The translations under genes and the position numbers were made by a program. From positions 33,881 to 97,880 of the forward strand of contig CAWAOD010000004.1 in the NCBI GenBank assembly GCA_963783575.1: a DNA stretch of 64,000 nt. Direction: 5' to 3'. This document shows positions 3,761 to 63,846 of the stretch, in pieces; within the stretch, counting starts at the first letter, position 1, and the number at the start of each line of letters is the position of its first letter. The stretch comes from an uncultured Spirochaetota bacterium (lineage in GTDB: Bacteria; Spirochaetota; Brevinematia; Brevinematales; JAOACQ01). The notes beneath the pieces are model-generated. The model was not told where the DNA came from. It saw only the letters and a list, made by a program, of their open reading frames with translations, and did no database searches.

Positions 3761-4057
3761 CCCGCAGCATTAGCGCCATTTCTGATTTAGCTTTTATTTG
3801 GTTAAAAAGAAATCTCAATAGTAAAATTATTGTTATTCCTGTGAAATAAAAAAGTAAATGTTTAATTCATTTCACGGCAGGATGCCGTGACCGACGCATA
3901 AAGCCAGGGATGGCGACATAAGGAGGCTATTATAATTAGATTTCTTTAATTAAAAAACTTGAATAACAACACCTCGATACAGAAAGACAGCTTCACATGA
4001 AATGGCGTTAATGCGGAGGGGTGACTTTTCTTTTTGGTACTTTTTCTTTTGGTCAAT
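3761..4057 (+). repeat. Palindromic ~340-bp repeat element, copy A (interrupted by the IS; remainder at 5788-5831)
   Basis: It shares ordered blocks with copies at 61757-62048 and 57855-58349 (CCCGCAGCATTAGCGCCATTTCTGAT ... TTGTTATTCC ... AATAACAACAC ... CACATGAAATGGCG..ATGCGGAGGGG). The outer and inner blocks are mutually reverse-complementary. Confidence 0.7.
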
Positions 4058-5783
4058 TTGTCTGTCGAAAAATCCGAAAATATGATATAATAGTTAGTTG
4101 CAAAATTAAAGAGGGGAAAGACAATGGCGAGATATAAGAGAGGAAATCTAGACCAGGGAGAATTGTTAGCCATCAATTTGCAGGAACAATTCGATGAATA
4201 CAGCCGTGAAGTCCTTCTAAAAAAGTTTGTGGCGAAATACATTGATATACAAAGGTTTGATAAATATTATTCCAATGATGAAACAGGGCGGAAAGGGAAA
4301 CATCCTCAAGATGTTATATCTGCGATTCTCTATGGTTATTTGCAAGGAATCCATTCCAGCCGCAAGGTAGAAAATCTTCTCAGAACCCACATAGGATTTA
4401 TGTATGTATCAAACCGTCTTAGCATAGATCATTCAAAGCTTTGCGATTTTAAAATCCAGTTTGATGATGAAATTACAAATCTGTTTGCGACAATTCTTTT
4501 TTTATTAAATAACATAGGAGAGATTGATTGGGATGTAGTTGTGGGGGACGGAACGAAAATCAAAGCCAATGCATCAAAGTCAAAGACGATGACCGGGGAA
4601 AGAGCCGACAAAGTGATGAGAACTTACCGCAAAATGGCAACCAAAGTAGTTAAAAGGAGTTTGGAGACGGATGAGAAACTAAATCGTGGTGAATTGGAAG
4701 AAGAAAAGTATATGGCTGAAAAAAAGTGTATAGAACGTCAGGAAAAGCTTTACAACAGAGTGATGGAACAGGTGGAAGTTTATCAAAAGATGCTTGAAGA
4801 AGAAAGATTAAAAGAAGGAGACAAAACCATTACAGGTAAAGATCATTATAATTTAACCGATCCTGACAGCTCTCTTACATTGGGACCTGACAAGAGCGGA
4901 TATATTCAGGGATATAATATAAGAATGATGATCAGTAACAATGACATAATACTAAGCTGTGAAAACGATAAATTGAATGAGAAATACAGTGCGAAACCCA
5001 TGATCGAGGAAGTGGAAAAGCTTAAAGAGGAATTGGGGGTAAAGCAGGAAAGTAAGTACCTGCTGGATTCGGGATTTCAAAATATGACGGACATTCTGGA
5101 AATGGAAGAAAAAGGATTGGATTGCTATATTGATGTAAAAGAGAGAGATTTTGGGAAAGAGGTACAAAAGAGAAAGAATTTTGAAATCATAAAAGGTGAT
5201 AACAGAGAGTATCGGTTAAAGTGTTGTGGTGGATTAAAAACAAAAGGATACATTGATGATAAAAGAGGCAAAATCCACTTTTTCTTTAACCGATCTCAAT
5301 GTGAAGGATGCAATAAATATCAGGAATGTTACTCAAGGATCAATCCAAAAAGAAATCAAAAGACTGTAAATTTCAATCTGTTTGAGTTAGAGAACAGAAA
5401 GGAAATCGACAGTTATCTGAATAAATTGAGAAGCGATGAAGGACAAAAGATATACAGCAAGAGAATTGGAAAGGAACACAATTTTGCCAACCTTAAAACA
5501 CAGAAAGATTTTTCTCAAACCTATTATCGTGGAAAAGAAAAAGTAGAAATGGACTGGCTCTGGAATTCCACATCACATAATTTGGGAAAATATTTTCAGG
5601 CAGTAATATGTAAAGGATTGAGTATATGAGGATGATATAAAATGGTACAGGAGTGTAATTATGTAATTTAAGCTATAATAAATTGTATATGAGATTAATT
5701 TTCGGATATCCTAGAAATCAAATGTGATATCCGAATGTTATAGAAAATCGCTTTTTCTCTTTTTATAGTTTTTCGACAGACAA
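4058..5783 (+). mobile_element. IS element (IS1182/IS5-superfamily), copy 1, 1726 bp
   Basis: The 15-bp terminal inverted repeats TTGTCTGTCGAAAAA lie at 4058-4072 and, as reverse complement, at 5769-5783. They are flanked by the 4-bp direct repeat CAAT (4054-4057 and 5784-5787). A near-identical copy lies at 62049-63774. Confidence 0.9.
4124..5629 (+). CDS. DDE transposase, IS1182/IS5-like
   Basis: 501 aa. It has an N-terminal DUF772/InsH-like motif (ILYGYLQGIHSSRKVENLL...IDHSKLCDF). The catalytic-type motifs are VVGDGTKIKANAS, YLLDSGFQN and GKEHNFANLK...YYRGKEKV. Confidence 0.9.
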   Translation: MARYKRGNLDQGELLAINLQEQFDEYSREVLLKKFVAKYIDIQRFDKYYSNDETGRKGKHPQDVISAILYGYLQGIHSSRKVENLLRTHIGFMYVSNRLSIDHSKLCDFKIQFDDEITNLFATILFLLNNIGEIDWDVVVGDGTKIKANASKSKTMTGERADKVMRTYRKMATKVVKRSLETDEKLNRGELEEEKYMAEKKCIERQEKLYNRVMEQVEVYQKMLEEERLKEGDKTITGKDHYNLTDPDSSLTLGPDKSGYIQGYNIRMMISNNDIILSCENDKLNEKYSAKPMIEEVEKLKEELGVKQESKYLLDSGFQNMTDILEMEEKGLDCYIDVKERDFGKEVQKRKNFEIIKGDNREYRLKCCGGLKTKGYIDDKRGKIHFFFNRSQCEGCNKYQECYSRINPKRNQKTVNFNLFELENRKEIDSYLNKLRSDEGQKIYSKRIGKEHNFANLKTQKDFSQTYYRGKEKVEMDWLWNSTSHNLGKYFQAVICKGLSI

Positions 5784-5937
5784 CAATCAAAAGAAAAAGT
5801 ACGAAAGCTACTTTGCCGCGGCTCTGCGGCATTAAAAATTTATTTTTGACAATTTTAATGTGCTATAATAAACTTCCGGTGTTTAGATCAATAGTCCGGA
5901 AAAAATAATAATTTATTTTTTATTAAGGAGAAAATAA

Positions 5938-11065: not shown

Positions 11066-14000
11066 ATGAAAAATGAAAAAAAAAGAATACCCTTTGAATT
11101 AGCTTTAATCATCAATATCATATTAATTATACCGGTAATTTTATCTATTTTTAGAAGGGAAAGGTCCATTCAGGAAACGCTATGGCAAATCATTATCCTG
11201 CTGTTAGCCGGCGCTGCTTGGACTATTCTTGCGATGATATTCAGCAAGCTGATCACTATAAAATGGGGAAATTTCCTGAAAGGATGGGTTTTATTTCAAA
11301 TTTTCACCATTATTTGCGAATATATTTTATTGGGTAATTATATCATTGCCGTATTTATTGTATTTTCAATTCTAACCGTTGCCGGAATAATAATATTTAT
11401 ATTATTTGATAAACTCTGGGATCTGTCTTTCGATTTTACCTTTATTAAATTTGCTTATACAAGCCTGGTAAAAATAAGCGGCTTTTTCCGGAGAAAAAAA
11501 GATATAAAACTTTTAAAAATCCCATATTTTCTTATGATCATCATTTCCCTGGCGCTGATCATTTCCGACCTTGTTTTTCATTACATGCATGACAGGGTTA
11601 TTTTGCAAACATTCTTTCTGTTATTATTGTTGATTGTTGCCGGTGCGGCATGCACACTGGCCGCTATGACAGCCAGCCGCCTAATCACAAACAGGTGGGG
11701 CAACTTGTTAAAAGGATGGCCGGTATTTCAAATCCTTACCGGCATTTATTTTTATCTTGTTTTAATTAACGATAATTTTCTGAGAACAATATTTTTTATT
11801 ATTCTGTTCATCCTCGGCCTTTTTCTTTTTATCCAGTACGGCAGTCTATGGAGATACGGTTTTGATAAAACCATACTGGAAACAATAAAACAAGAGACTT
11901 TCCAACCAGTATTTACAGCCGAGAAAAATGCCGGTATTAAGTCCATTAATATTTTTGATACAATCATAAATGGAATCGGGAATATTTTAAGGCTGAAACA
12001 ATGGAAAATCATCCTGCCGGGACTTGCCGTTATAATTATTCTGGCGGGCGGAGCATGGATGTTTTTTAAAATATTCACTGTTAACGTAATTAGCTATACA
12101 CCGAAGAATACGGTACCTTTAAAAACAGAGATCAGGATCAATTTATCGGAAGAAGTATTCGTGTCCGGCAAAGCGGCTGAGGAATTAATTAAGGAAAATT
12201 TAACGGAATATTCTAATGTTGGAATTATCTCAAATATTATTTTTATTAAACCTGAAACCGGGATTATCAGGACTGAACCGGATGTCAAAGGTTCCTGTCG
12301 GCTTGAAGACAGCCGGACACTTATTTTTACGCCTGAAGAAGAACTCAACCCGTCTTCAAAATATACCGTCTTTTTTAATCCTCAATGGCTATTTAAAAAA
12401 GGTAAGGTGATACTTGGCAAAAGTTATTCTTTTAATACTCCAAAATTTGAAATAACCGGTATCCGTATGTTTTTTAATTATGATTCCATAAATAATCTGG
12501 AAAAGGAAATAGTCGGGGAAATCAATTTTAATGCACCAGTAAACATAGAAGAACTAAGAAAAAATACCACTCTGGATATTAATGAGAAGCCCTTCAAATT
12601 TAATATTGAGTCGGCTAATATCCCGACCCGCTTCTATATTAAATCCGATAAACTGGAAAGACAGAAAACAGCGGTGAATATCCACTTGTCAATTAATAAA
12701 AATCTTCAGTGCATTCATGGCGGTCAGCCCCTTGGTAAAAAAATTGAGCAAACGATCACCCTCGCAGAAAAAGAGAAATTAAAAGTCATAGATGCCAAAA
12801 CATGGCCTGTATCCGGAAATACTTATATTGCTCTACTATTTAATCAGCCGGTATCTGCCGAACAAATAAAAAAACATGTTTCTATACATCCTGAAACGAA
12901 TGAAAGCGTACCCTATTCGGTAGAAACCGAATACTGTTATGCAGTATTTAAGGCAGAATTTTTGCCTAACAAAAAATATAAGATAAATGTGGAGAAAGAA
13001 ATACTTTCAGCCGGTGGGGCGGAAATGAAAGAGGATTTTAACTACAATGTTTTTATAAAAGACATATACCCTGATGTCGGATTCAGTTCGGAAGGAAATA
13101 TCTTGGCGGTTAACGGTAATATGGATCTTGAATTCAGCACAATCAACCTGGACCGGTTTCGTGTCAGGGTTGATAAAATATACCGGAACAATCTGGTTTA
13201 TTATCTTCATAAAACTCATGGCTTTGAATTTGTCAAACCATTAATGCTAAAGACATTTGAGGTTGAAGGCGGAACTCTGAATGAAAGGGCGCAGCATTAT
13301 ATTAATTTAAAAAAATTCCATAATATTGAGTATAAAGGGCTTTATAAAATCACTTTATCCGATCCGAAATCCGGGGAAGTATATTATGATGAGGATGAAA
13401 ATAACGTTAATAGATATACTAAATCAAAAACAATATTATGCACGGATCTTGGAATTATTGCCAAACAATCCGGGAAAGATCTATATGTTCAAATATATTC
13501 TATTTTACAGCTCGAACCCGTTGCTGATGTGACAGTCAATCTGGTCAGCTCCGACAACCAGGTTATCAGATCAAAAAAAACAGACAATACAGGGAAAATT
13601 GTTTTTGAGAACTGGCAGGAAGAAGGCAATGAAAAATTTCATCCGTTTATCTTATTAGCTGAAAAAGGGGAAGATTTATCATACCTTCAGTTTTCAAGGT
13701 CGATGAAAGATCAGTCCAGGTTTGATACCGGCGGAAAAATGCTTTCAAGGAATGAAATGCAGGCATATTTGACACCGGATAGGGGTGTTTACAGGCCCGG
13801 TGAAAAGGCAAACATCACGGCAATAGTAAGGAACGGCAATTTATCCCTGCCGGCTTCCGTTGATGTAAATCTTGAAGTCAATGATCCGACAGGCCTGAAA
13901 TTTACTTCTTACCGGAAAACAATACCGGGTAATGGATTGATTTCTTTTGATATTAATTTTCCTTCTTATGCAAAAACAGGTGAATATGAGGCAGTTTTAA

Positions 14001-21000: not shown

Positions 21001-21034
21001 AAAAACCCCGCTTTAAAAAGCGGGGTTTTATTTT
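21001..21034. terminator. Bidirectional rho-independent terminator between the convergent spoIID-like gene and ppdK
   Basis: The stem AAAACCCCGC / GCGGGGTTTT has an 8-nt loop. An A-run lies upstream and a T-run downstream. Confidence 0.8.
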
Positions 21035-39629: not shown

Positions 39630-40928
39630 ATGAAAATGAATGTTCTTAAACTGCCCGCTGTTCTGCCGGATGGTAAACCCGGGGCAATTTATCCTGTTCT
39701 CCTGAGCGATAACGGCGAATCGATTCTTGTGGATGCCGGGTTTCCCGGCCAGCTTAAACAGTTTAAGGATGCTTTCAAGGTGGCCGGAATCGGCTGGAAT
39801 TCATTAAAAACTATAATTATTACCCATCATGATATCGATCATATCGGCAGCCTGCCCGATATTATCCTGGATTCGCCTGCTAAAATCGAAGTGATTTCAT
39901 CTGAACTGGAAAAACCTTATATCCGGAAGGATGTTGTTTCATATAAAGCGGAACTTCTTAAAAAACATCTTAAGACCATTCCCGAAGATCAAAAAGTATC
40001 GGTACGTTCCATGCTGGATAATTTCACCAGGATGTCAGGGGGACCGGGCACAGATGTTGCCCGTGTGCTGAAAGATGGAGAAGAGCTTCCATTCTGCGGC
40101 GGCATCACTGTTATTTATACACCGGGGCATACTCCCGGGCACATAAGCCTGTATTTAAAAGGGTTCAAAACCCTTATTTCCGGCGACGCGTTGTCTACAG
40201 ACGGTGAATCGCTCTTTATTATGCCTTTTCCCGATTTTTTACAGGATAATGAAACTGCCCGGAAATCGATCCGGAAGCTGGCCAATTACGATATTAAAAC
40301 TGTAGTCTGCTACCATGGAGGAATTTGCGGGAACCAGGTTAACAGGAAAATAGCGGTTATGTCCGGGAAAGAAATACCTGAGGATAATTCAATGGTAAGA
40401 GTTTTCCAAACCTTGGCGGAGTATAATCAATCGGCAAATATAGAGCTGTTGAACCGCCTTGAAAAACTGCCCGGGGAACAGTTGAAGCTGGATACCGGCG
40501 CTTATTATACCTCAATTTATGAAGTCCTCAATCATATACTTATGAATAGCGACACGCTTTTCCTCAAGCTTTACAGCGATCTTTTTCCGGGCGATCCGGC
40601 GCTGTCAGGGAATATTCTCACCGGTCTGGATGAGGAGAAATACAAGGAGCTTATGGAAAAGCTTGAACTGGATTACAAAAAGATTTTTGTTTACCGGAAG
40701 GAAACTGATGGTTTGATCCGCAGGTTTATGGACAAATTAACACCGGAATACCTCTCTTCCAGCGTTCCGCTTTACCAAAATGCCGAGGGAGAAACGGTAA
40801 GCGGAGAACTCTGGAAAACGTTGTTGAAGCTTTTCGATCACCAGACATACCACCGAGGCGAGATCGCTGTTTTCCTTGACCGGATGGGTATTGAAAACGA
40901 TACTTATTCGGCAGGATGGGTTCACTGA
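39630..40928 (+). CDS. Metallo-beta-lactamase-fold hydrolase fused to a DinB-like domain
   Basis: The MBL motif is ITHHDIDHIG, with a later TPGHTPGH. The C-terminal DinB-like region reads HILMN...HQTYHRGEIAVFLDRMG. The last two codons and the stop are supplied by a MITE. Confidence 0.8.
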   Translation: MKMNVLKLPAVLPDGKPGAIYPVLLSDNGESILVDAGFPGQLKQFKDAFKVAGIGWNSLKTIIITHHDIDHIGSLPDIILDSPAKIEVISSELEKPYIRKDVVSYKAELLKKHLKTIPEDQKVSVRSMLDNFTRMSGGPGTDVARVLKDGEELPFCGGITVIYTPGHTPGHISLYLKGFKTLISGDALSTDGESLFIMPFPDFLQDNETARKSIRKLANYDIKTVVCYHGGICGNQVNRKIAVMSGKEIPEDNSMVRVFQTLAEYNQSANIELLNRLEKLPGEQLKLDTGAYYTSIYEVLNHILMNSDTLFLKLYSDLFPGDPALSGNILTGLDEEKYKELMEKLELDYKKIFVYRKETDGLIRRFMDKLTPEYLSSSVPLYQNAEGETVSGELWKTLLKLFDHQTYHRGEIAVFLDRMGIENDTYSAGWVH

Positions 40929-41067
40929 AAAAAGAGTTAAAATTTGAAAACTATAACCAACCGTTTCTAATTGCATTTATAACTCATTGTTATAAAGTAG
41001 GATATGACACCAATAAAATACTGTTTATTAAACATTTTAAGATTTATGCTGATTTTCAGTGAACCCG
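40918..41067 (+). mobile_element. MITE (~148 bp), copy a
   Basis: Terminal inverted repeats are GGGTTCACTGAAAA / TTTTCAGTGAACCC. The direct repeat GGATGGG lies at 40914-40920 and 41068-74 (TIR/TSD boundary ambiguous). A second copy, with about 9 mismatches by eye, lies inverted at 58075-58225. Confidence 0.8.
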
Positions 41068-52319: not shown

Positions 52320-52339
52320 TTATAACCGGATATCAAAAA

Positions 52340-52365
52340 GGCAGGTTTTAAACCTGCCTTTTTTT
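52340..52365 (+). terminator. Rho-independent terminator after the ATPase gene
   Basis: The stem GGCAGGTT / AACCTGCC has a short loop and is followed by a run of 7 T. Confidence 0.8.
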
Positions 52366-53502: not shown

Positions 53503-53603
53503 CATTTATATCGAAAAAAAATCCGGTTTTATTTTAATATTTTAAATTCCGATAATAAATTGACATAATTAATAAATAGTAGCAAAATATCATTGTAATT
53601 ATA

Positions 53604-54096
53604 AAGCAGGCTGGAAAAACGCCTTTCACTATTTTGTTGCGCTGATCTATGATGCTGGCAAAATGGTGAGGGGAGGAAAGTCCGGGCATCAAAAAGCATC
53701 GGGCCGGTTAATAGCCGGGCAGTAAATCTGCCTCCGTAAGCGGCAGGAAATGCTGACGGATAGCGCCACAGAAAACAAACTGCCCCTTACCATTTTATTA
53801 GCTTCACCTTTGTAAGCTCACAAAGTGGTAAGGGGTGAGGGTGAAAAGGCGGTGTAAGAGACCACCGCGGAACGCATAAGCGGACCGGCAAGGCAAGCCC
53901 CCCGTGATGCAAGGCTGAATAGGCATTCCATACTACCGCTTGTAGTAATCCATGGATAAGAATGCGGGTAAGCCGCTGGATATGTTTTATAAAAAACATA
54001 CAAGATGGATGTTTTTCGTCCTTTGATTTTTTGCCAATTTCTTTTAATTAGAGTGACAGAAGTCAAGGAAACAGGACCCGGCTTACAGGCCTGCCT
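53604..54096 (+). ncRNA. rnpB: RNase P RNA (bacterial type A), unusually long
   Basis: Universally conserved segments are present: GAGGAAAGTCCGGGC (about 53672-53686), GGTAAGGGGTGAGGGTGAAAAGGCGGTGTAAGAGACCACCGC, GCAAGGCTGAATAGG and ACAGGACCCGGCTTA (54071-54085). P1 pairing of GCAGGC (53606-53611) with GCCTGC (54089-54094) sets the ends. Confidence 0.85.
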
Positions 54097-54154
54097 TATT
54101 TTCTAAATTAATGTTTCCTGTTGCTTCGGGCTAAGGCTCTTAAGAAGGTGAAAA

Positions 54155-54691: not shown

Positions 54692-56101
54692 ATGGTCAGA
54701 GTCCGCTTTGCCCCGTCGCCGACCGGCAAGCTCCATCTTGGAAGCGCCAGGACAGCAATATTCAACTGGTTATATGCCAGGCATACCGGCGGAAAGTTTA
54801 TCTTGAGAATAGAGGATACGGATCTTTCCCGCTCAGATAATTCATATACGGAATCGATTATTAAAGATATGCGATGGATGGGTCTGGAATATGATGAATA
54901 TTATACGCAGAGCGGCAGGTTCGCAGTCTATAGGGAATATACAAACAGGCTTCTGGATGAAAACAGGGCATATTACTGCATCTGCGAGAGAGAGGATATA
55001 GCCGCCAGGTACAGCCTTAAAGAGACAGCCGGGGAAGCATTAAAATATGACGCTTTTTGCCGGGGCAGAACCGTTAAGCCGTCGGGGAGTTATGTTATAA
55101 GGCTTAATATTGGAGAGGAAAGGAAAATTACATTCAAGGATTCCATAAAAGGAAAAATCACTGTAAATACCGGAGAACTTGATGATTTTGTGATACAGAA
55201 AAGCGACGGCACACCGACATATAATTTCGCCGTTGTTATTGACGACGCCTTAATGGCGATATCCCATATCATAAGGGGCGAGGATCATATTACAAATACC
55301 GCAAAGCAGATCATACTTTACGAACTTCTGGGTTTTCAGCTTCCAATATTCGCTCATCTGCCTCTCGTAATGGATAAAGACAGGACGCCTCTTTCAAAAA
55401 GAAAAGGCTCCATAAATATTGAAAGCTACCGTGCTTCCGGTATTCTTCCCGAAGCCCTTTTGAATGCCATAGCCCGTTTGGGCTGGTCTCACGGGAATGA
55501 TGAGATCCTGTCAGTCGATCAAATGATTGATTTTTTCGACATCGACAGGATAAATAAATCCGCCGCAGTCTATGATGAGGAAAAAATGATCTGGGTAAAT
55601 GGAAAGCATATGAAATCATTATCCGATTCAATTCTAAAAAAGCATTTTGAGGAATTTCTGGAAGAAGCCCATCTTGATAAAACAGGTAAAATGAAAAATA
55701 GCGATTGGCTTATTTCGGCTATCGGAATTCTGAAAGGCAGGCATACTTCATTAAATAGTCTTTTCCAGGAAATTCGCTTTTTCGCTGAAGCCGAAACTGC
55801 GGAAAAATTTCAAATTGAGGATAACGCCGCCGGCCAGCTTGACAGCCTTTTAAAGAACCCGGATTTAATGAAGTCTTATTCTGAAGCAAGGAATATAATT
55901 TTATCAATACAGGATTTTCAAAATCTATCGGGATTGGAGCATGATTTAAGGGAAATATCAGAAAGGAATTCCGTAAAATTCGGCGATCTTATACAGGTTT
56001 TAAGAATTATCATTACAGGCAGAACGTCATCACCTGATATACTCTCCGTTATTAAACTGACCGGTGAAAATGTAAGGGAAAGGTTAAATTTATCTTTATA
56101 G
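54692..56101 (+). CDS. gltX: Glutamate--tRNA ligase
   Basis: Begins VRFAPSPTGKLHLGSARTA (HIGH-type motif) followed by RIEDTD. LSKRKG provides the KMSKS-type motif. 469 aa. Confidence 0.95.
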   Translation: MVRVRFAPSPTGKLHLGSARTAIFNWLYARHTGGKFILRIEDTDLSRSDNSYTESIIKDMRWMGLEYDEYYTQSGRFAVYREYTNRLLDENRAYYCICEREDIAARYSLKETAGEALKYDAFCRGRTVKPSGSYVIRLNIGEERKITFKDSIKGKITVNTGELDDFVIQKSDGTPTYNFAVVIDDALMAISHIIRGEDHITNTAKQIILYELLGFQLPIFAHLPLVMDKDRTPLSKRKGSINIESYRASGILPEALLNAIARLGWSHGNDEILSVDQMIDFFDIDRINKSAAVYDEEKMIWVNGKHMKSLSDSILKKHFEEFLEEAHLDKTGKMKNSDWLISAIGILKGRHTSLNSLFQEIRFFAEAETAEKFQIEDNAAGQLDSLLKNPDLMKSYSEARNIILSIQDFQNLSGLEHDLREISERNSVKFGDLIQVLRIIITGRTSSPDILSVIKLTGENVRERLNLSL

Positions 56102-57854: not shown

Positions 57855-58349
57855 TGTTTCCCTTTTGGCAAAAGGGAGAAAGCTCTTCCTTTCTTTCCTG
57901 CACAGCCAGGAAAGAAAGGAACCAAAGAAAGGAGCTGCCCCTTCGCATTAGCGCCATTTCATGTAAAGAAATTGTTTTATTCGGAAGTGTTGTTATTCAG
58001 GTTTTATTAAAAGCTCTATTTTTATTAAAGAGCCTCACTATGCAGTCCTGCTGCGTTCGGGTCGCAGCCGTCCTTGGGTTCACTGAAAATCAGCATAAAT
58101 CTTAAAATATTTAATAAACAGTATTTCATTAGTGTCATATCCTGTTTTATAACAATGAGTTATAAAAGCAATTAGAAAAGGTTGGTTATAGTTTTCAAAT
58201 TTTAACTCATTTTTCAGTGAACCCATCCTTGGCCGCGAAATATTATTGATTTGATTATTTTCTAAGGGGAATAACAACGTTTTTTATATTAAGATTCTTT
58301 TTTTACCATACAAAAATTCAATCAGAAATGGCGCTCATGCTGCGGGGGG
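57855..58349 (-). repeat. Palindromic ~340-bp repeat element, copy C (IS-free, carrying a nested MITE)
   Basis: Its reverse complement carries all blocks of copies A and B. The intact terminal hairpin is TTCCTTTCTTTCCTG (57886-57900), loop CACAGC, then CAGGAAAGAAAGGAA (57907-57921). Confidence 0.7.
58075..58225 (-). mobile_element. MITE (~148 bp), copy b, inserted in the central block of repeat copy C
   Basis: It has the same TIRs as copy a. It is flanked by the direct repeat TCCTTGG (58071-58077 and 58226-58232). The predicted 65-aa ORF 58080-58277 is internal to the element. Confidence 0.8.
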
Positions 58350-58680
58350 CGATTTAGCAGGTTGCGGTCACTGAGTAGTGGCATGTTAAAAATGGTCACT
58401 TCGATTTGCGGCAAAGCCGCTACTCAGTGATTAGACACATATCGAAGTGACTGTCATGACGATTGCTTTTAAAAGTTTCATACATCAATTTTAATAAATT
58501 GTATATTTTACCCTGCCTGAAAAATTCGTTAGGTGTATAATTAAGGAAATGATTGAAGGTTGACGGAAGAGGAGTTTAAGGTGGTGGAGAGTGATAACTA
58601 ATAAATAAAAGTATACGAAAAACTAGATTGTTTCCTATGAACTGTATTTTGTTTATTATAATTGTTGAGGAATAAAATAT

Positions 58681-61756: not shown

Positions 61757-62048
61757 CCCCGCAGCAGGATCGCCATTTCTGATTAAGCTTTAGTGTGGTC
61801 TTAAGCGAAGTCGGTAATAAAATCGTTGTTATTCCTGTTTAATATTGACAATACAAGCTAGAGGGTTTCTGCCTGGACGGCAGAAACCGACGAATCAGTC
61901 CAAGGATGGACTGTTGAGTCGGCTGTTACTAAAAGATATCTTTTACCAAATACCAATAACAACACCTAGATATTTACAGACCTCTTCACATGAAATGGCG
62001 CTCATGCGAAGGGGCGATTCTTTCTCTGGTTACTCTCTTTCTCATCAC
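61757..62048 (+). repeat. Palindromic ~340-bp repeat element, copy B (interrupted by the IS; remainder at 63779-63822)
   Basis: It has the same ordered blocks as copy A. The terminal hairpin arms GTTACTCTCTTTCTCA / TGAGAAAGAGAGTAAC are split by the IS. Confidence 0.7.
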
Positions 62049-63774
62049 TTGTCTGTCGAAAAACTATAAAAAGAGAAAAAGCGATTTTCTATAACATTCG
62101 GATATCACATTTGATTTCTAGGATATCCGAAAATTAATCTCATATACAATTTATTATAGCTTAAATTACATAATTACACTCCTGTACCATTTTATATCAT
62201 TCTCATATACTCAATCCTTTGCATATTACAGCCTGAAAATATTTTCCCACATTATGTGAAGTGGAATTCCAGAGCCAATCCATTTCTACTTTTTCTTTTC
62301 CACGATAATAGGTTTGAGAAAAATCTTTCTGCGTTTTAAGGTTGGCAAAATTGTGTTCCTTTCCAATTCTCTTGCTGTATATCTTTTGCCCTTCATCACT
62401 TCTCAATTTATTAAGATAACTGTCGATTTCCTTTCTGTTCTCTAACTCAAACAGATTGAAATTTACAGTCTTTTGGTTTCTGCTGGGATTTATGTTCGTA
62501 TAACATTCCTTATTATTTTCACATTCCTTACATTGTGATCGATTATAGAAAAAGTGGATTTTGCCTCTTTTATCATCAATGTATCCTTTGGTATTTAATC
62601 CACCACAGCACTTTAACCGATACTCTCTGTTATCACCTTTTATGATTTCAAAATTCTTTCTCTTTTGTACCTCTTTCCCAAAATCTCTCTCTTTTATATC
62701 AATATAGCAATCCAATCCTTTTTCTTCCATTTCCAGAATGTCTGTCATATTTTGAAATCCCGAATCCAGCAGGTACTTACTTTCCTGCTTTACCCCCAAT
62801 TCCTCTTTAAGCTTTTCCACTTCCTCAATCATGGGTTTCGCACTGTATTTCTCATTCAATTTATCGTTTTCACAGCTTAGTATTATGTCATTGTTACTGA
62901 TCATCATTCTTATATTATATCCCTGAATATATCCGCTCTTGTCAGGCCCCAATGTAAGAGAGCTGTCGGGATCGGTTAAATTATAATGATCTTTGCCTGT
63001 AATGGTTTTGTCTCCTTCTTTTAATCTTTCTTCTTCAAGCATCTTTTGATAAACTTCCACCTGTTCCATCACTCTGTTGTAAAGCTTTTCCTGACGTTCT
63101 ATACGCTTTTTTTCAGCCATATACTTTTCTTCTTCCAATTCACCACGATTTAGTTTCTCATCTGTCTCCAAACTCCTTTTAACTACTTTGGTTGCCATTT
63201 TGCGGTAAGTTCTCATCACTTTGTCGGCTCTTTCCCTGGTCATCGTCTTTGACTTTGATGCATTGGCTTTGATTTTCGTTCCGTCCCCCACAACTACATC
63301 CCAATCAATCTCTCCTATGTTATTTAATAAAAAAAGAATTGTCGCAAACAGATTTGTAATTTCGTCATCAAACTGGATTTTAAAATCGCAAAGCTTTGAA
63401 TGATCTATGCTAAGACGGTTTGATACATACATAAATCCTATGTGGGTTCTGAGAAGATTTTCTACCTTGCGGCTGGAATGGATTCCTTGCAAATAACCAT
63501 AGAGAATCGCAGATATAACATCTTGAGGATGTTTCCCTTTCCGCCCTGTTTCATCATTGGAATAATATTTATCAAACCTTTGTATATCAATGTATTTCGC
63601 CACAAACTTTTTTAGAAGGACTTCACGGCTGTATTCATCGAATTGTTCCTGCAAATTGATGGCTAACAATTCTCCCTGGTCTAGATTTCCTCTCTTATAT
63701 CTCGCCATTGTCTTTCCCCTCTTTAATTTTGCAACTAACTATTATATCATATTTTCGGATTTTTCGACAGACAA
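62049..63774 (-). mobile_element. IS element (IS1182/IS5-superfamily), copy 2, 1726 bp, inverted relative to copy 1
   Basis: It has the same 15-bp TIRs as copy 1. It is flanked by the 4-bp direct repeat TCAC (62045-62048 and 63775-63778). Confidence 0.9.
62203..63708 (-). CDS. DDE transposase, IS1182/IS5-like
   Basis: 501 aa, differing from the 4124-5629 product at about 15 positions. Confidence 0.9.
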   Translation of the reverse strand: MARYKRGNLDQGELLAINLQEQFDEYSREVLLKKFVAKYIDIQRFDKYYSNDETGRKGKHPQDVISAILYGYLQGIHSSRKVENLLRTHIGFMYVSNRLSIDHSKLCDFKIQFDDEITNLFATILFLLNNIGEIDWDVVVGDGTKIKANASKSKTMTRERADKVMRTYRKMATKVVKRSLETDEKLNRGELEEEKYMAEKKRIERQEKLYNRVMEQVEVYQKMLEEERLKEGDKTITGKDHYNLTDPDSSLTLGPDKSGYIQGYNIRMMISNNDIILSCENDKLNEKYSAKPMIEEVEKLKEELGVKQESKYLLDSGFQNMTDILEMEEKGLDCYIDIKERDFGKEVQKRKNFEIIKGDNREYRLKCCGGLNTKGYIDDKRGKIHFFYNRSQCKECENNKECYTNINPSRNQKTVNFNLFELENRKEIDSYLNKLRSDEGQKIYSKRIGKEHNFANLKTQKDFSQTYYRGKEKVEMDWLWNSTSHNVGKYFQAVICKGLSI

Positions 63775-63846
63775 TCACTGAGAAAGAGAGTAACAAAGCC
63801 CCATTGCCGTGGCTTTACGGCAAAATGCAATATAATAATTTTCCTC

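Follow-up and report, generated by a model that had tools for sequence, protein, structure and literature searches.

In the ENE/A-tract triplexes of MALAT1, MEN-beta, KSHV PAN and some transposon RNAs, a Hoogsteen pyrimidine strand, a Watson-Crick pyrimidine strand and a 3' purine strand follow one another in 5'-to-3' order, and a U-rich loop is clamped by flanking stems. The only bacterial triple helices named in a 2026 review are those of riboswitches and group II introns (PMC13541005). A different kind of structured RNA, exemplified by the Csr/Rsm small RNAs (CsrB, CsrC, RsmX/Y/Z) and the glgC leader, presents GGA triplets in hairpin loops to the protein CsrA. The consensus obtained for CsrA by in vitro selection (SELEX) is RUACARGGAUGU, with GGA in a hairpin loop, and the dimer can span two sites separated by 10-63 nt (PMC7652899). 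The CsrA of Leptospira recognises GGA in hexaloops, and no csrB/csrC homologue is present in the genomes of this genus (PMC8668096). At the DNA level, the ERIC/IRU, BOX, Correia/NEMIS, REP/BIME and RUP repeats are multicopy intergenic imperfect palindromes that occur in either orientation, often 3' of genes and sometimes with nested insertions. Here we describe a repeated intergenic element of about 330-400 bases, three copies of which (A, B and C) lie in a 64-kb stretch of spirochaete DNA (the window). We read it, with a probability of roughly 45%, as a transcribed structured RNA element that combines an ENE-like 3' triple helix with two protein-binding GGA loops.

The 5' block of the element, GCAGCANNANCGCCATTTCTGAT, occurs exactly three times in the window, at 3764-3786 (+), 61761-61783 (+) and 58321-58343 (-), where 0.01 occurrences would be expected by chance. 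The 3' block, ACATGAAATGGCGYTNATGCGRAGGGG, also occurs three times, at 3995-4021 (+), 61988-62014 (+) and 57938-57964 (-) (chance expectation 0.00). Mobile DNA splits all three copies: A and B carry a 1726-bp insertion sequence (IS) of the IS1182 family and C a 149-bp miniature inverted-repeat transposable element (MITE; Table 1). With the insertions removed, the three copies can be aligned over approximately 330 nt with a mean column identity of 70%, and some blocks are invariant. A preliminary description of this DNA had reported three copies that share ordered blocks and have no open reading frame (ORF) in common. Every one of those blocks was recovered in its place, and neither a conserved ORF nor a decayed gene is evident.

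The copies form an undescribed family of structured intergenic elements, with 11 copies in at least four genomes or assemblies; eight of these lie outside the window, in at least three other Spirochaetota assemblies. A scan of genome collections revealed two intact copies in a Spirochaetota metagenome-assembled genome (MAG), at loci L003 and L004, and further copies came to light in public assemblies through searches that started from the transposase and from two housekeeping proteins. L003 (two copies), L004 (two copies) and L070 belong to one Danish soil MAG, L085 and L094 belong to a second MAG, and one copy is found at L091. The two L003 copies (minus strand, 5725-5470 and 4318-3902) bracket gap (GAPDH) and have nearly identical 3' halves, one of them being truncated by the contig. 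The second L004 copy is divergent and lies on the other strand. The preliminary description had allowed that the family might amount to three loci with no covariation, whereas copies exist in other genomes and covariation is present.

RNAalifold, applied to five copies, yields an outer CCCC/GGGG clamp plus a 16-bp helix (P1), a helix of 9-10 bp (P2, GTTGTTATT/AATAACAAC), two apical hairpins (HP1 and HP2) and a terminal hairpin with a pyrimidine arm (Py2) and a purine arm (Pu). The strands of P1 and P2 are about 180-240 nt apart and yet covary between subfamilies. Both helices are invariant in the main group and show compensated changes in the divergent copies; the P1 of L085 and L094 is GGCCATTTTC/GAAAATGGCC, that of the divergent L004 copy is GCGGTTTCC/GGAAACCGT, and P2 occurs as GTGTCATC/GATGACA(T), GTGTTATCCG/CGGATAACAC and GCATTAT/ATAATGC. 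The helices were curated by hand and their pairs counted in Python, the MAFFT alignment of the apical domain being too poorly registered for automated counting. In this set, 78/80 cells are paired in P1, 63/64 in P2, 40/40 in HP1 and 98/98 in the Py/Pu hairpin, and changes on both sides of the helix are seen at 6 of 10, 8 of 8, 5 of 5 and 11 of 14 positions, respectively. In 2000 trials per helix in which 3' arms were swapped among copies, the observed pairing was never reached for HP1 and was reached four times for Py/Pu. The z-scores of folding were -6.5 and -5.5. Wobbles in the helices comprise five G.U and no A.C, and the L004 copy folds with -110 kcal/mol on the given strand versus -98 on its complement; the given strand is therefore favoured as the folded one.

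The core of the element is thus a domain with two hairpins that is closed by the long-range helices P1 and P2, not one long hairpin. The single long imperfect hairpin of the preliminary description survives in the P1/P2 frame, but what this frame encloses is a domain of several hairpins, two of which have conserved GGA loops. Its view of the terminal stems, which are perfect over 15-16 bp, differ between copies and look like covariation, is borne out by the complete pairing of Py/Pu. We considered a pseudoknot in which AAAGCC would pair with the GGCTTT loop of the last hairpin and dropped it, since it is perfect only in copy B and sterically doubtful. An integron attC site, 6S RNA, a retron and an omega-RNA were likewise dropped on grounds of size, copy number, the absence of core sites or partner genes and the absence of an Rfam match.

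The 3' module follows the core in the order Py1, a linker of 1-7 nt, Py2, loop and Pu. Py1 is the mirror image of Py2 and hence parallel to Pu, with a T under each A and a C under each G, so that the 3' ends carry the sequence symmetry that a three-stranded helix would need. Every copy has a Hoogsteen-compatible parallel run of 9-12 positions (Table 1), and shuffling of the 16 nt upstream of the hairpin gives p values from 4e-4 to 6e-3 per copy. Under a strict null, in which only the C positions within the tract are permuted, p is 0.015-0.055 per sequence type; the Fisher-combined value was about 6e-5 and became 9e-6 with a sixth sequence type added. In the non-periodic types (A, L004 and L085), C is placed exactly where a triplex requires it. 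A, B, C, L004, L070 and L085 share one register, with the lowest triple 4-5 bp above the hairpin base and a linker of 1-2 nt. Loops of one or two nucleotides span the deep groove of A-form helices in pseudoknots, a length of similar order to this linker if the comparison is apt. None of the 98 Py/Pu pairs is a wobble, which fits a triplex or a DNA hairpin because a plain RNA hairpin would tolerate wobble.

GGA is present in all 16 HP1 and HP2 loops examined (AAGGAU, AGGGAU, CAGGAUG, UGGAC and similar), and the two triplets of an element are always 25-30 nt apart. Several loops agree with CAGGAUG, the repeat of CsrB, or with ACARGGAUG from the SELEX consensus. The loops resemble the sites of CsrA-type proteins in both placement and spacing.

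According to the reading that we prefer, RNA would be read from the given strand, either as the tail of an upstream transcript or as a separate small RNA. Py2 and Pu would form a perfect duplex of 14-16 bp, and Py1 would run parallel to Pu in its major groove to give 9-12 consecutive U.A-U and C+.G-C triples. In such a triple helix the 3' purine strand would be buried and 3'-to-5' exonucleases would be slowed, and the paired GGA loops would provide a bipartite site for a dimeric RNA-binding protein, for which CsrA is the closest precedent. A transcribed element is the most economical account of a covarying one-strand fold that is kept in paralogous types across distant genomes. We are more tentative about the full proposal, namely that the 9-12 stacked triples make up a long, ENE-like triplex that protects the end of a bacterial transcript, the first of its kind, on a new RNA class whose GGA loops recruit a CsrA-like dimer; this we consider possible and by no means probable. 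The preliminary description had left a choice between a noncoding RNA, a MITE-like repeat and a DNA-level hot spot, which our results narrow and do not settle.

The predicted triplex shares with the ENE systems the strand order, the long U.A-U runs with interspersed C+.G-C and the predicted hiding of the 3' purine strand from exonucleases. It differs in that Py1 and Py2 are joined by a few unpaired nucleotides instead of forming a clamped U-rich loop and in that the purine strand is mixed A/G instead of an A tract. Moreover, the host is bacterial, and no ENE covariance model in Rfam matches. The homopurine.homopyrimidine mirror repeats that form H-DNA are a second precedent for the Py1-spacer-Py2 arrangement, with 9-12 nt per half and a short spacer, but the element has a third, purine arm on the same strand that covaries with both pyrimidine segments, which points to a single-stranded fold-back triplex. 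As for the apical domain, the element has in common with the Csr/Rsm RNAs the GGA loops, the consensus matches and a spacing in the bridging range; it differs in having two sites, long stems, no evident Gac-type promoter or terminator and loops that lie inside a much larger conserved fold. The TwoAYGGAY RNA motif of Rfam consists of two adjoining hairpins with conserved xxGGAY loops. The loops of the element, in contrast, are mostly ARGGAY or CAGGAY and are set in a framed structure of 260 nt that no relevant Rfam model matches at E up to 5.

In searches at the gathering threshold of Rfam 15, the sole match in the window is an RNase P RNA elsewhere, and the element is unmatched. At E up to 5, the best score of the intact copies is 26.6 bits, to low-complexity models, and no relevant family appears, in agreement with the earlier view that no known RNA family can be assigned. 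A tRNA/tmRNA scan found nothing, and viral contigs, plasmid collections and phage collections contain no copy. A metagenome-wide pattern scan returned 64 loci, all of them chance matches and none with the right spacing plus the 5' block, and in four DNA metagenomes related copies and the MITE are represented by fragments only.

The gltX gene of the window (54692-56101) encodes a protein whose closest counterpart among 5.8 billion proteins is only 66% identical, which indicates that the window derives from a very poorly sampled spirochaete lineage. Its relatives are named Brevinematales or Brevinematia, and the host thus appears to be a Brevinematales-like member of the Spirochaetota. Blocks of 20-25 nt are identical between elements of genomes whose GltX proteins are just 60-66% identical. 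Most copies have a co-oriented gene 60-110 nt downstream, and both orientations are found. After copies A and B, the next gene appears to have its own promoter. None of nine related gap loci of other genomes has an element next to gap as in L003, and none of six related gltX loci has a syntenic one, the only copy there being the non-syntenic one in L085. In L070 (3985-4017), the element's last hairpin (CCTTTAT...ATAAAGG) and the Shine-Dalgarno sequence of a downstream SDR gene overlap. In L004 (1866-1905), the hairpin lies just upstream of the Shine-Dalgarno sequence of xth, and a local effect on translation is possible.

Several observations weigh against a transcribed triplex element. Searches for RNA runs returned 0 runs with this organism and thus no transcript evidence. 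No conserved promoter was found at a fixed distance upstream, and no canonical intrinsic terminator follows the element, the pyrimidine tract preceding the hairpin and no T run lying 3' of it. The triplex inference rests on six types of low-complexity pyrimidine tract, in types B and C a direct repeat fits almost as well as the mirror, and several C+.G-C triples, some of them adjacent, are unfavourable at neutral pH. Template-switch repair can keep DNA palindromes perfect without selection. Each element has two conserved GGA sites compared to 5-22 in Csr/Rsm sponges, and there is no csrA-like ORF within the window. Same-type copies occupy non-syntenic places in different genomes, which fits a mobile or horizontally spread element, and horizontal spread is also hinted at by the co-resident ISs, which are 78-83% identical between genomes with GltX identities of 60-66%. 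Disruption is common: all three window copies are broken and the L070 copy is decayed, so individual copies are dispensable. Much of this would equally suit a repeat that acts at the DNA level, either a non-autonomous mobile element or a REP/BIME/ERIC-like unit, which a transposase, RAYT-like enzyme or recombinase encoded elsewhere would read as folded single-stranded DNA in the shape of a cruciform, of hairpins or of an H-DNA-like triplex, any RNA being incidental. The non-syntenic copies in both orientations, the types common to distant genomes, the tolerated disruption and the lack of an evident promoter all speak for such a repeat, as does P1, whose strands are like imperfect terminal inverted repeats of 22-25 bp. 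The Py1-linker-Py2 mirror is, furthermore, a textbook H-DNA motif, and a purine-motif DNA triplex would be equally possible on the complementary strand. However, two of the three segments would suffice for H-DNA, neither the conserved Py/Pu module nor the last hairpin lies within the P1 repeats, and the wobbles are five G.U to no A.C. No target-site duplication is recognisable by eye at the ends of seven copies from the window and elsewhere, whose outer boundaries are not sharply defined, and P1 bears no resemblance to the ends of the sole IS seen there. Within one genome, copies are about 60-70% identical overall and conserved only in structural blocks, unlike recently transposed MITEs; of the hallmarks of a MITE, P1 supplies terminal inverted repeats, but the copies are not near-identical and no parent IS shares their ends. 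Compared to ERIC- and BOX-type repeats, the element is two to three times longer, its copies within a genome are far more diverged and show covariation, it contains a triplex-compatible module, and neither an associated transposase nor a target duplication is seen; REP/BIME units, at 20-40 nt, are about ten times shorter. We regard a DNA-level repeat as the main rival, a serious, if doubtful, explanation. That the sequences are merely neutral repeated DNA, with palindromes kept by template-switch repair and mirror symmetry arising from periodic TTTC-like simple sequence, we consider very improbable. The tracts are of low complexity, types B, C and L094 are nearly self-mirror, and copies are often disrupted, but such DNA would account neither for P1 and P2 strands that covary over their long separation nor for the invariant GGA loops, the triplex-compatible C placement in A, L004 and L085 and the identical 20-25-nt blocks across distant genomes.

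Two further explanations retain the RNA but assign it a different role. Csr/Rsm-type sponging, in which a small RNA would mainly titrate CsrA through its two GGA loops, draws on the loop sequences, their spacing and the consensus matches (consensus from PMC7652899 and PMC8668096) and on the binding of GGA hexaloops by a spirochaete CsrA in Leptospira, where no csrB/csrC homologue is found (PMC8668096). We nevertheless consider a strict sponge unlikely: the element offers only two sites, on stems of 6-10 bp, whereas SELEX ligands of CsrA mostly have no more than four contiguous pairs (PMC7652899). There is no Rfam match to a Csr/Rsm family, no csrA gene in the window and no evident promoter or terminator, and a sponge would leave P1, P2 and the triplex module unexplained. 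The other possibility, which seems to us less likely still, follows from the preliminary description, in which Py1 was a near-tandem copy of the pyrimidine arm. Py1 would then compete with Py2 for Watson-Crick pairing to Pu, and the module would act on the downstream gene as a two-state switch of the attenuator or riboswitch kind. With G.U allowed, Py1 can indeed pair antiparallel to Pu over 8-10 positions, a co-oriented gene follows most copies, and the last hairpin overlaps or adjoins a Shine-Dalgarno sequence in L070 and L004. Strict Watson-Crick matching of Py1 to Pu is, however, no better than in permuted tracts (Fisher p approximately 0.05-0.07, as against 9e-6 for the mirror), and the mirror match is much longer than the direct one in the non-symmetric types (L004, 12 versus 7; L085, 9 versus 7; A, 10 versus 9), so the mirror displaces the tandem copy as the better description. 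An alternative helix with a C.A mismatch and a wobble could hardly switch against a perfect competitor of 15-16 bp, and the gene after copies A and B apparently has a promoter of its own.

The perfect Py/Pu hairpin is, apart from any function of the element itself, a preferred landing site for ISs of the IS1182 family. The inserted element belongs to this family by its transposase, which has the Pfam domains DUF772 and DDE_Tnp_1_6 and named relatives in the IS1182 family, by its terminal inverted repeats and by its preference for palindromic targets. The IS copies in A and B are 97.4% identical, lie in opposite orientations and each interrupt the terminal hairpin precisely at its tip, with 4-bp duplications of loop sequence on either side (in A, CAAT at 4054-4057 and 5784-5787). 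In total, there are five hairpin-tip insertions, the others being an 83%-identical IS in the decayed L070 copy, a 78%-identical IS in the B-type copy at L091 and a more distant IS1182-family IS within the L085 hairpin; the L094 copy is intact. Since orientation or duplication varies among those in A, B, L070 and L091, these insertions are at least partly independent. However, it should be noted that L070, L085, L091 and L094 were found via the transposase, which biases the insertion frequency upward; the unbiased count is 2/6. The window contains three intact perfect hairpins of at least 11 bp, namely two terminators and the Py/Pu hairpin of copy C, and the IS copies sit in the other two Py/Pu hairpins. 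Both terminators (21002-21029 and 52335-52363) are canonical and bidirectional, with an A tract, a G+C stem and a T tract, and the 3' end of the element is unlike them.

IS1272/TnSha1, an IS1182-family element of staphylococci, is reported to target hairpins without sequence specificity, inserting repeatedly and in both directions into hairpins that have no common primary sequence (PMC4923244). It cleaves inside the stem, and part of the target is lost, whereas the ISs described here enter at the hairpin tip, where 4 bp are duplicated and nothing is deleted. We rejected the idea that the hairpin arms are part of the IS, since different arms adjoin identical IS ends, and hairpins without an IS occur. 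The MITE has a second copy in the window (40918-41066), which is identical at 141/149 positions, lies in the opposite orientation and is situated at the very end of ORF 39630-40928. Both MITE copies are found at an RTCC/GGAY site, so the GGAY loop of the element matches the target of the MITE. With the five hairpin-tip insertions and this MITE, the insertion hot spot that the preliminary description had offered as one option is supported. MITE fragments are also present in freshwater-sediment and peat metagenomes.

Related ISs are found in other palindromic settings. At L086-L088, an IS of the same family (66% identical) is centred in a Py/Pu palindrome, GGTTCCTTTCTTTTCCG/CGGAAAAGAAAGGAACC, with the mirror tract TTTTCTTTC before the palindrome; this context is G+C-rich and unrelated to the element. 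The right IS flank in L087 and L088 is the reverse complement of the left flank, which may reflect a 30-bp palindrome, the coexistence of both IS orientations or short contigs that fold back. At two loci of one genome, L085 (13757-13735) and L094 (approximately 11607-11630), the right IS flank is identical (GGACAAAAGAAAGTGAAC), and a matching left arm is present only in L085, suggesting recombination between IS copies or carry-over of a hairpin arm.

Table 1. Coordinates of the three copies in the window and of their insertions, with the predicted triples of these and of further copies (Py1, predicted Hoogsteen third strand; Py2 and Pu, Watson-Crick arms of the terminal hairpin)
Copy	Feature	Window coordinates	Strand
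A	Whole element, split by IS	3761-4057 plus 5788-5830	+
A	P1 5' strand CCCGCAGCATTAGCGCCATTTC	3761-3782	+
A	P2 5' strand TTGTTATT	3830-3837	+
A	Apical hairpin HP1, loop AGGAT	3873-3889	+
A	Apical hairpin HP2, loop AGGGAT	3903-3914	+
A	P2 3' strand AATAACAA	3962-3969	+
A	P1 3' strand GAAATGGCGTTAATGCGGAGGGG	3999-4021	+
A	Py1 TTTTCTTTTT, 10 predicted consecutive triples on Pu segment AAAAGAAAAA	4026-4035	+
A	Py2, pyrimidine arm of terminal hairpin	4037-4051	+
A	IS1182-family IS in hairpin loop; transposase 4124-5629; inverted repeats TTGTCTGTCGAAAAA; not part of element	4058-5783	+
A	Pu, purine arm CAAAAGAAAAAGTAC	5788-5802	+
A	Last short hairpin GCCGC-GGCTCT-GCGGC	5815-5830	+
B	Whole element, split by IS	61757-62048 plus 63779-63823	+
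B	HP1, 10-bp stem, loop TGGAC	61864-61888	+
B	HP2 (CCGAC/GTCGG plus CAGTCC/GGACTG), loop AAGGAT	61887-61922	+
B	Py1 TCTTTCTCT, 9 predicted consecutive triples on Pu segment AGAAAGAGA	62019-62027	+
B	Py2 arm GTTACTCTCTTTCTCA	62029-62044	+
B	Second IS1182-family IS; transposase 62203-63708; target duplication TCAC; not part of element	62049-63774	-
B	Pu arm TGAGAAAGAGAGTAAC	63779-63794	+
B	Last hairpin TTGCCGT-GGCTTT-ACGGCAA	63804-63823	+
C	Whole element, MITE in HP1 loop	57859-58347	-
C	P1 5' strand	58325-58347	-
C	149-bp MITE in AAGGAY loop of HP1; inverted repeats GGGTTCACTGAAAA; not part of element	58076-58224	
C	HP2 GCAG-CAGGA-CTGC	58042-58054	-
C	P1 3' strand	57938-57960	-
C	Py1 TCCTTTCTTT, 10 predicted consecutive triples on Pu segment AGGAAAGAAA	57924-57933	-
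C	Terminal Py/Pu hairpin, uninterrupted, 15 bp, loop GCTGTG; longest intact perfect hairpin of the window	57886-57921	-
C	Last hairpin TCCCTTT-TGCCA-AAAGGGA	57859-57877	-
L070	Py1 TCTTTCTCT, 9 predicted consecutive triples on Pu segment AGAAAGAGA		
L004	Py1 CCTTTTTCTTTC, 12 predicted consecutive triples on Pu segment GGAAAAAGAAAG		
L003b	Py1 CCTTTTTCTTT, 11 predicted consecutive triples on Pu segment GGAAAAAGAAA		
L085	Py1 TTTTCTTTC, 9 predicted consecutive triples on Pu segment AAAAGAAAG		
L094	Py1 TTTTCTTTCTTT, 12 predicted consecutive triples on Pu segment AAAAGAAAGAAA		

Two other structured regions of the window may be mentioned. Just upstream of copy C (58362-58452), an inverted repeat TCACTGAGTAGTGGC...GCCGCTACTCAGTGA is interlaced with a second one, GGTCACTTCGAT...ATCGAAGTGAC, and the two could fold as a pseudoknot or as two alternative hairpins. 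One arm is found in the opposite orientation on a metagenome contig (loose end 58378), which hints at an invertible or repeated unit. The RNase P RNA is of class A (53603-54101, plus strand; 259 bits) and, at 499 nt, is considerably longer than the 367 positions of the model due to several long inserted hairpins.

To our knowledge, stabilisation of transcripts by long stacked major-groove triple helices has so far been found only in eukaryotic and viral RNAs. If the triplex forms in RNA, bacteria would have evolved the same solution, and the family would provide several natural variants of one triplex for biophysical work. We also know of no RNA antagonist of CsrA that has been established in the spirochaete phylum, and the paired GGA loops are a concrete candidate RNA partner for CsrA-type proteins in these bacteria. 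If, on the other hand, the element is a DNA repeat, it would be a natural sequence with combined cruciform and triplex potential. It would also show that the IS1182 family picks such hairpins with 4-bp precision, which bears on how transposases of this family recognise structure and not sequence.

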